From the NCBI GenBank assembly GCA_012295275.1, contig CM022672.1, positions 21,948,001 to 22,012,000 on the forward strand: a stretch of 64,000 nt of DNA, given 5' to 3'. Position 1 is the first letter of the stretch; every line of letters begins with the position of its first letter. This document shows positions 56,801 through 59,800 of the stretch, in pieces. Under the pieces are notes generated by a model. The model was not told the origin of the DNA, ran no database searches, and saw only the letters and a program-made list of their open reading frames with translations. A program made the position numbers and the translations under genes. The DNA comes from Chrysomallon squamiferum. Lineage: Eukaryota; Animalia; Mollusca.

Positions 56801-59800
56801 TTTCACTTTAGATGTTTTTGTTTCTCTTGTGAAGAATTGTGTGAATTTAAAGCAAACCTTCCATTCCAATTATTCGTAGGCCAATGTATGTAAAATATAA
56901 CTGTTTGATTTGATGAGAGATGTATATACATAAAGCAATACTAACACATTGTCATGACAACACCACTTAAAGTCAGAGGTCACTCATGCAAGATTATTCA
57001 GGATTCAAGTAGTAGTAATAGTAACAGCAATATTAGTAGTAGTAGTTTTATAATAATAATAATAATAATAATAAAATAATAAATAAATTTTCAAGATTCA
57101 ATAAATTTAAAAAGTTTATTGGTAGGACAAAATTTAAAAAAATAATATTTGTAAAATAAAATAAAATAAAATAAATGTGTTTTATTAAAATGAATGAATA
57201 AATAAAAAAAAAAAAAAAAAAAAATAAACAAATAAATAAATAAATAAATAAGTATAAATAAAACATAATTTGTATAAATGTTTATCAGTGGGGTTTTTTT
57301 TTTCTGTCAGAATTTTATCTTTGCTTTTTACAAATATTTATTTATGGGTTTTAATACTGATACCTATTTTTCATCACATTATTTTAAATGAATGAACTAT
57401 TCAGGCCAATAAAAGATCACAATTTTTATACTTATTTTTGTTATGATAAAAATGTACATCAGTAATCTAATTTTTAGAATGGGAAAAATACAAAAAAGTA
57501 TTTTCAGCATTTCAGGACTGTATATCAGTATTTTAATTTGTTTTCAATTTTTCTTGTTTTCTATTTTCTATTTTTTTTTTTTTTTTTTCTCCTTCTTCTT
57601 CACATTGTTCTTTTTTTTTAATATTTATTTTATTTTTTTTTAAATTATGTCTTTTTTAATGTTAGTTTTATTTTGATATATTAAAAAATTTTGTTATGTA
57701 TTATTTGTTTCTGGTTATTTTATTAAAGAAAATTTTAAAATATGATAAAACCGATAACTAACTTTAAAAATGTCATATTTAAAAACTTGCATGGAGTGAA
57801 CATCTGCATATATAAATATATATACAACAGTAAAGCTGCATTCTGATTGGTCACTTCAAAGACATTCACACGAAGGAACAGCTAATTGGATACTGTATGT
57901 GAAAACAAAACAGAACCAGTCATTCTGATTGGTCACTCCATAAAATACATACACAAAGAAGAAACTGGTTGATGTTTTGTGAGCACAACACAGGACTACA
58001 ATTTTCATTGGTCACTTCAAAAGACATTTACAAAAGAAGGAACATTCTATTGGATGGTTTTATTTTTTTGGTGAGCACAACAGAGGACTACACTCCGACT
58101 GGTTTAAGAGTTTGCTTCAAACCTTTACTCCAAAAGCACATAGCTTTAGTAGGAACTCTATTGTGTATGAAGCTGTAAAGACTTGGTTTATTATTAAAAG
58201 AACATCTGATAGCATCTGGCCACTATTATTTTTAGAATCACCAGGGGTAAACTGAAGTCAAGCAGGCAAAAAAGAGAAATAAGAAAGAAAGAAAAAAAAA
58301 TAGGTTAAATATATGTTAATATATAAATATATAAACTAGTATCCATAGAAACAAACAAAAAAAAAAAAAATAATAATGATAATGATAATAATAATAATTG
58401 TAGTAATTAAGAGAAACGAACAAACAACAAAATAAATTTAAAAATAATAATTTTAGTGAGTTAGTCCTCAGCCAGTGCTGAAATGAAATCAAGATAATGT
58501 GGCAAAAATGAAAAACCCAAAGCAATCTGTATTCTCGTTGGACACCATGTGACCAGAGGAAAGTTCAAAGTTCAACTTATTTATAATATTTAATAAATTG
58601 ATATAAAAATCAGTATATATATTTCTTTTCTTTTCTCTCCCCCATAATTTCAATTCATGTTTATGATAAAATCCTTTTTTCAGTTGGTTTTTTTTGACAG
58701 AATGATTTTTGATTTTACCCAAAAACTTATTCTGTATCATGTTTTGTAGATATTATTTAAGTTTTTACAGTTAAACCTTCTAATGATCACAGATGCTAAA
58801 GGAAACTGGTTTTCCCCTACTAACACATGCTCTGTAATAACATTCTGAATCACTATTATATGATTCTCTTTGTATTAGTACCATAAATTTTGATTCCATT
58901 ATAAAAAAAAAAAAAAAAAAAAATAATAAAAATAAATAAATTTATAAATAAAATGTTTTTATAAGTAATTTGTTTTTAAGAATCAGATTTAATTTTAAAA
59001 AAAAAAAAAAAGAAAAGAAAATGTGAATGAATACAAGAACATCTGTATGGGAAGGAAAAACCAAATTTTCTGTAAGGAAATGTAAATTTGTGAGTGAAAA
59101 ATACATGTATTATTCACAAACCATCCACCATTATTGACATTTTGAAATACTCTTCTCCTGTAACAAACATTTGCACACTATCAAATGACGATTTTCATTT
59201 TAGATTTTTATTTCTTGCAGTCTGAAGCAATAAATACCATTGCTGCTGTAATAACTAGTACAGTTTACATTTGTTTTTAACACAAAATATACATTTAAGG
59301 CATCAGTGTCCATATACATCAAACACTTCTTGATACTGATATCATTTTTACATAATACCACCATATACCTTTTACACTTCAGTTTCTGCATCTTACAAAT
59401 TCTTAATATTATATTTTTGCTCTCCCATTTTAATCTACACCAGTCTGCAAAACAATTTGTTAACAAGGTTAAGCACATATCCCAAAATGTCTTGTCGTCA
59501 GTAATAGGTAACAAATGAAGCAACCAAAACAAGCTGCAAGTTTCTCAGTAAATCTATTCTAAAACATGAAGGTGATAGGCAGGCTTGTTTTGTCTTACCC
59601 TAGGACCAAACCCAATCAGCTTGAGCATACACTCAATCGTGAAGCAACAGGTAAATGCTATATTGAGTCTTACGCTAACTTCAACATAGACACCATCTTG
59701 GCCGTGATACTGGTAGAAAAACAGAATGTTAAAACGCACAGACAAAAAGAAATCAAAAAAAAAAAAAAAAAAAAGTGTTTTTTTGTGAGGTTTTTTCTTT

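Follow-up and report, generated by a model that had tools for sequence, protein, structure and literature searches.

A second IVS2 exon resembling Aplysia exon 33b in the Cav2 α1 gene of Chrysomallon squamiferum

Does the Cav2 α1 gene of Chrysomallon squamiferum carry a second, alternative exon for the S2 helix of domain IV (IVS2), and would a choice between the two exons alter voltage sensing? A sequence-only reading of a 64,000-nucleotide stretch of this genome (contig CM022672.1, positions 21,948,001 to 22,012,000; hereafter the window) had proposed both. Here we examine the exon pair, its counterparts in other animals, the signs of exon choice and the likely consequences for the domain-IV voltage sensor.

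The IVS2 exon pair and its host gene

The window is animal DNA with a G+C content of 25% across the 64 kb. Its minus strand carries the 3′ part of a Cav2 α1 gene, from the III-IV linker to the C-terminal DDWC. Domain IV, the EF-hand/IQ region and the DWC motif occur in order, with best matches to Cav2, and the channel exons map in order onto Gigantopelta and Haliotis Cav2, the last exon ending in DDWC. The nearest named protein among those fetched was Gigantopelta aegis Cav2, which is 91% identical over 56 residues of the IVS1 exon and has the QGK form of IVS4 in common with the window. An out-of-order copy of the IVS5-pore exon (47236-47144) lies after the IVS6 exon, at 45490-45580 on the minus strand; it has 4 mismatches in 92 nt and no matching donor, and is likely a recent non-functional duplicate. 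Downstream of the channel, the minus strand contains exons of a second gene (446-3067) with β-hexosaminidase-like motifs.

Two IVS2 exons, both in phase 0-0, are flanked by the IVS1 and IVS3 exons (Table 1). Exon a has the acceptor ...ctaccag and the donor gtaaga, and exon b has the acceptor ...gacttcag and the donor gtttga. With a profile of S2 segments from 54 relatives, from which the window peptides were excluded, exon a scored 53.3 bits and exon b 45.0 bits, compared with a best score of 12.6 bits in 300 shuffles of the 6,852 nt of intron around them. Scanned with this profile, the window showed no third S2 exon above 13 bits. Over the last 23 codons, a and b have 11 residues in common versus 6.2 expected from their DNA divergence, and 61 of 20,000 simulations of residue sharing reached 11. 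These results, together with the AG/GT splice sites and the phase, confirm the 129-nt minus-strand exon of the sequence-only reading and its alignment with exon a, including the loop longer by six residues and the Tyr that replaces Phe three residues before the S2 Glu. In a sequence alignment, the F/Y-x-x-E motif of both exons was in register with the domain IV S2 of solved Cav1 channels. As judged from its sequence, exon b gives this gastropod Cav2 α1 gene another version of the IVS1-S2 loop and the S2 helix. Imperfect repeats with GTGACCAAT, few and dispersed, lie directly below the exon (57820-58100, minus strand).

Table 1. Coordinates in the window of the IVS2 and IVS4 exons, their neighbours and selected sites
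Feature	Position	Strand	Remarks
Constitutive exon, III-IV linker end and IVS1 (Aplysia exon 32 equivalent)	61923..62087	-	phase 0-0
IVS2 exon a (33a equivalent), short S1-S2 loop, F-T-I-E	59599..59709	-	111 nt, 37 residues, donor GTAAGA
IVS2 exon b (33b equivalent), longer loop, Y-T-I-E-F	58123..58251	-	129 nt, 43 residues, non-consensus donor GTTTGAAGC
N-N-S sequon, exon b loop	58222..58230	-	
Tyr codon, charge-transfer aromatic position, exon b	58165..58167	-	aligned with exon a Phe 59643-59641
S2 Glu, exon b	58158-58156	-	aligned with exon a Glu 59634-59632
Exon b donor, AAG/GTTTGAAGC	58114..58125	-	12 nt identical to second-exon donor of locus L001
Constitutive IVS3 exon, single copy, with charge-transfer Asp	54747..54830	-	phase 0-0
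IVS4 copy x (S3-S4 loop end, S4, S4-S5 linker; QGY form)	52663..52779	-	117 nt, phase 0-0
Intron between IVS4 copies	52612..52662	-	51 nt
IVS4 copy y (QGK form, as in Gigantopelta aegis models)	52495..52611	-	117 nt, phase 0-0

The exon had been presented as hidden, and on this point the core finding is a rediscovery: such a pair has been described from Aplysia, with confirmation by PCR, and oyster and octopus are listed as having it too. According to PMC5818475 and PMC10657410, exons 33a and 33b of Aplysia californica CaV2 α1 (splice site 4, IVS2) were cloned or confirmed by PCR, and sensory neurons and the whole nervous system favour different exons of the two so named (PMC10657410). The Aplysia and window pairs are alike in lying between the IVS1 and IVS3 exons with the short a upstream and the long b downstream. 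As printed in the supplements, Aplysia 33b resembles window b in its start (F-x-P), its end (LLKLCA[YF]G) and the Tyr at the charge-transfer site, whereas window b differs in its loop, in having a sequon and in retaining the Val that also precedes the last Lys in Haliotis and Patella. Both supplements (PMC5818475, PMC10657410) print a Gly (GGG) at the conserved S2 Glu of 33b. This Gly could be a clone error, a typo or the result of RNA editing, and it bears on the published a/b comparison. Exon b is almost certainly orthologous to Aplysia 33b, and thus belongs to a system that is already published. Tandem exons that swap one voltage-sensor helix are also found in vertebrate Cav1.2 (alternative IIIS2 exons 21/22) and in Drosophila cacophony (IS4A/IS4B); these concern other domains in other lineages and are analogues of the window pair, not orthologues.

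Counterparts in other animals and the choice between exons

Relatives were reached through the IVS1 exon, whose search returned 168 proteins (120 of them listed), and through a Nucella region, which returned 22; a protein search with exon b alone gave four candidates and no match at E 10. From ten clusters of up to 42 members each, 101 records were listed, with no more than 15 from any one cluster. Four of these records were without the segment, and among the other 97 a single S2 exon was present in 96 and two in one partial record (P0213). Both forms occurred as alternative records in Haliotis, Patella, Pomacea, scallop and Biomphalaria. Among the records listed, which are gene models rather than read counts, long b and short a forms stood at 13:2 and 12:3 in Haliotis, 7:2 in Patella, 12:3 in Pomacea, 9:4 in scallops and 6:0 and 1:2 in the Biomphalaria genes, and exon a alone was found in 11/11 models of Gigantopelta, in Crassostrea virginica (6) and in Lymnaea (3). 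Three database models (P0010, P0016 and P0031) chain two or three S2 exons and are probably prediction artefacts. In Elysia crispata (P0031) there are three IVS2 exons, two of a-type and one b, and Nucella (P0010/P0016) and Biomphalaria (P0125/P0131) each apparently have two Cav2 genes with the pair kept in both.

When 60 exon peptides were placed in a tree (40 columns), window b fell inside an 11-row gastropod-b clade (100/92) nested in a 14-row clade with bivalve b exons (99/92), on a long branch (1.05), and window a was sister to the Gigantopelta exon (99/92). Aplysia is absent from the tree and was compared through its printed sequence. A trimmed tree, with 17 of the 60 rows dropped as near-duplicates, recovered the b clade (98). 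Thus, window b grouped with the b exons of other species and window a with a-type exons, and the arrangement in the window is that of the molluscan 33a/33b pair: homologous exons of the same phase, short then long, between single IVS1 and IVS3 exons. The b clade and the single S2 exon in nearly all records of relatives support the proposal of an old, strongly diverged and mutually exclusive pair, and the ortholog search suggested for variant b was answered by the coding counterparts in the gastropod-b clade.

Tandem S2 exons were also found in loci of apparently non-molluscan origin. The IVS1 exon retrieved 119 metagenome loci, and eight of the best 80 had such exons: L001 (3700-4400), L043, L048, L050, L065, L076, L077 and L080. 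L001 has its nearest match in the annelid Dimorphilus (82% over 147 residues), and L077 is ambiguous; because seven of the eight are close kin, the independent cases number about three. In the same best 80 of 119, 20 loci span IVS1 to IVS3, 2 with two S2 exons and 18 with one. First-exon donors were GTAAG in all eight tandem loci and in window a. A T at donor position +3 was found in window b and in seven of the eight second exons, compared with none of 33 single or first-only S2 donors, and the donor sequence common to L001 and window b occurs once in the window. From these sequences, we infer that the weak but conserved b-type donor would be under regulated use. In the tree, the second exons of the non-molluscan loci do not group with molluscan b; a single origin of all second exons was neither rejected (p-AU 0.416, with 17 of 60 rows dropped) nor shown. 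We found no report of the IVS2 pair outside molluscs in the literature searched, which covered few subscription papers.

Several other features of these loci were observed. A CTTCTGCG motif is shared below the second donor, and second-exon donors are mostly GTT. A sequence containing TGCATG, the Rbfox motif, was seen within 40 nt below the first donor in L048, L050, L065, L077 and L080, with six loci reported or likely; near exon b, TGCATG occurs only at 56990 and 56309, >1 kb below the exon. Two sets of related Cav2 paralogues (L016, L021, L037, L038 and L046 versus L028, L033, L042 and L045) reach from IVS1 to IVS3 with just one S2 exon, which by eye resembles one or the other of the paired exons. 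Such sequences make it possible that the two exons were partitioned between Cav2 paralogues after gene duplication.

Five sequencing runs contain the stretch, and four RNA runs were examined over 58050-58288 (exon b with short flanks). No spliced junction at exon b was found in any of the four, with neither joints nor loose ends. Each run gave one contig colinear with the genome; all four crossed the b donor, and three crossed the b acceptor (by 16, 26 and 37 nt). This pattern would be expected if exon b were a dead or unused duplicate in this species, to which its long branch, its absence from the 11 Gigantopelta models and the presence in the same gene of another apparently non-functional exon copy (45490-45580) would also be suited. 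However, the contigs look like pre-mRNA or DNA and as such cannot show an absence of splicing. In addition, exon b has an open frame, intact AG/GT sites and all conserved S2 residues, it has its donor in common with the distant locus L001, and the records listed for Haliotis, Patella and Pomacea most often carry a member of its clade. We therefore regard a dead exon as very improbable.

Our preferred reading, held with somewhat better than even confidence, is that exon b is the second tandem IVS2 exon of Cav2, likely mutually exclusive with a, as are Aplysia 33a and 33b, and giving a modestly different domain-IV sensor. Against it stand the four RNA runs unspliced at exon b, the presence of only exon a in all models of the closest named relative, Gigantopelta, the four database models that chain two or three S2 exons (the three above and P0213) and the Aplysia data, in which a and b gave no difference in initial postsynaptic potential (PSP), depression or recovery (PMC10657410).

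How would the choice be made? Exclusion based on frame (decay) or on steric hindrance is inapplicable to a and b because both exons are multiples of three and keep the frame, they lie 1,347 nt apart and b is preceded by an AG-free zone of 82 nt. A search for docking and selector sequences was uninformative, the 25 longest of 2,636 inverted repeats all being A/T low-complexity. A hairpin over the donor was present in the minimum-energy fold of all five second-exon donors folded (z-scores -0.06, -0.44, 0.04, -0.18 and -2.78). Against shuffled downstream sequence, the counts were 20/200 for the window and 162/200 for L001; a hairpin over the b donor is therefore possible in these models, though not significant. 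In the mechanism that we propose, cell-type splicing factors would choose between the strong donor of a and the weak conserved donor of b.

The tyrosine, the loop and gating

The charge transfer centre consists of an S2 aromatic, an S2 Glu and an S3 Asp (Tao 2010, as reviewed in PMC13661669 and PMC3982104). The window has the same arrangement, with an aromatic three residues before the S2 Glu and an Asp in S3; F/Y-x-x-E and the IVS3 Asp align with the sequences of solved Cav1 structures. The difference is that the aromatic in the window gene is swapped by predicted splicing within one gene. Tyr was found in 11/11 gastropod b exons, window b included, always as Y-x-x-E-F. Phe was found in 22/22 molluscan a exons, 16/16 exons of non-molluscan pairs and 7/7 outgroups. 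Oyster, scallop and octopus Cav2 have alternative IVS2 exons of which the second has the longer loop, as in the window (PMC5818475 Table 1; P0133, P0207, P0013, P0015). Among four bivalve or octopus b exons, however, Tyr occurred only in the ark clam Tegillarca and the other three, scallop and octopus among them, kept Phe. Since these b exons and all 16 non-molluscan exons have Phe, the pair does not need Tyr. By its distribution, the Tyr change is old and retained in gastropods, yet not pair-defining, and its conservation in gastropod b exons speaks for a difference between a and b that is under selection. In the AlphaFold model of a Candidula b-form protein, which gives only rough helix limits (mean pLDDT 52.6), the Tyr position was mid-helix.

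The sequence-only reading held that the pair retunes voltage sensing; in its strong version, the Tyr would substantially shift the voltage dependence of the channel. The conservation of Tyr in all gastropod groups sampled is in favour of this proposal, as are statements in two papers that aromatic identity at the S2 site modulates voltage-sensor domain (VSD) transitions (PMC13661669) and that VSD IV of mammalian Cav2.2 activates near pore opening and may limit it (PMC11389781). In contrast, the Kv mutant F233Y had near wild-type voltage dependence with no shift (PMC3477161, in its summary of Tao 2010), and Aplysia neurons expressing 33a or 33b had initial PSPs of 14.6 and 13.7 mV (n = 6 and 6), with initial PSP, depression and recovery all without a difference (PMC10657410). 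A strong retuning is thus decidedly unlikely: a gating role for the Tyr is plausible, and a large effect has published evidence against it. The examined parts of PMC10657410 contain neither the Phe/Tyr exchange nor voltage-clamp data, and in the literature searched we found no gating measurement of a versus b, the published measures being synaptic only.

By analogy with the near-wild-type Kv mutant, a simulation in which the S4 barrier was higher with Tyr (PMC3477161), the role of VSD IV in Cav2.2 and the modulation by the aromatic, we infer that the effect of the Tyr would be modest and mainly kinetic. The Tyr and a neighbouring Cys-to-Phe change would alter the speed of S4 across the hydrophobic seal more than the activation midpoint. 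Exon swaps are likely, on this prediction, to fine-tune gating.

Alternatively, the pair may be real with the extracellular S1-S2 loop as the selected difference, acting in surface interactions, trafficking or ligand sensitivity, and with the Tyr a tolerated passenger that leaves gating unchanged. Second exons have longer loops in molluscs and in the non-molluscan loci, with Phe or Tyr alike; Tyr occurs naturally at the S2 aromatic site (PMC3982104) and is near wild type in Kv (PMC3477161); and the Aplysia exons were without synaptic effect (PMC10657410). On the other hand, b loops are poorly conserved while Y-x-x-E-F is kept in every gastropod b exon, and the N-N-S sequon that had been pointed out in the b loop is rare and badly placed. 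The sequon is present in window b, as had been claimed; only 3/11 gastropod b exons have a loop sequon. Its Asn, residue 8 of exon b, is about 10 residues after S1 and about 4 before the start of the S2 helix by the limits of the orthologue model, in which the Candidula b-form loop has about 10 residues at low confidence. N-glycosylation needs about 12 residues from each membrane helix (PMC3226467). Poor conservation and an Asn fewer than 12 residues from both helices leave a role for the sequon unsupported, and in this model it is likely not glycosylated. We consider the loop-based explanation unlikely, and retain as the preferred reading a tandem pair that modestly alters the domain-IV sensor.

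Duplicated IVS4 exons in the same voltage sensor

About 5 kb from exon b, the same voltage sensor has a second duplication: two copies of the IVS4 exon, x and y (Table 1). They differ at 39 bases, 28 of them at third positions, and 31 of 39 residues are identical compared with 16.2 expected, a number reached in 0 of 20,000 simulations, indicating purifying selection on both copies. The two have identical S4 gating charges, and the end of the S3-S4 loop and the S4-S5 linker differ. Aplysia, in contrast, lists a single exon 35, and a single S4 copy was found in all 97 records of relatives with the segment among the records listed; copy x as a second copy was in no relative's isoform record examined. 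A duplicated IVS4 exon pair was not reported in the literature searched, in which few subscription papers were covered, and the pair is apparently undescribed before.

Joint splicing assembly needs a donor-to-branch-point distance of about 50 nt (PMC7969005; vertebrate data). With 51 nt in all, the intron between x and y leaves less room between donor and branch point than joint assembly is proposed to need, which makes steric exclusion likely by this vertebrate threshold; judged by its length, the intron is likely too short for joining both copies. A candidate cassette of 48 or 50 nt (52839-52888, minus strand) lies 59 nt above copy x, with a CTAAC branch motif at 52919, AG acceptors and the sole AG/GTAAGT donor in the 45-kb gene body. 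From its sequence it would bring a stop or a frameshift, and could be a poison exon or a decoy donor.

The IVS4 copies likely provide a further choice, enforced sterically, so that the domain-IV sensor could come in as many as four versions. More tentatively, and in our view doubtfully, four Cav2 domain-IV sensors would arise from independent choices of S2 (Phe/Tyr seal) and S4, the S2 choice being pre-molluscan and under the control of a weak donor whose conservation extends to annelid-like animals; in addition, the Tyr would measurably alter gating. If true, this four-version reading would describe a natural, splice-controlled switch of the charge-transfer centre.

The published picture lists the IVS2 pair as conserved only to bivalves and octopus, and a wider spread would extend it, as would the IVS4 pair. 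Cav2 channels trigger transmitter release, and Aplysia neurons pick between the IVS2 exons by cell type. The conserved Phe/Tyr exchange is a specific, testable residue, and a natural experiment on the charge-transfer centre of a calcium channel.
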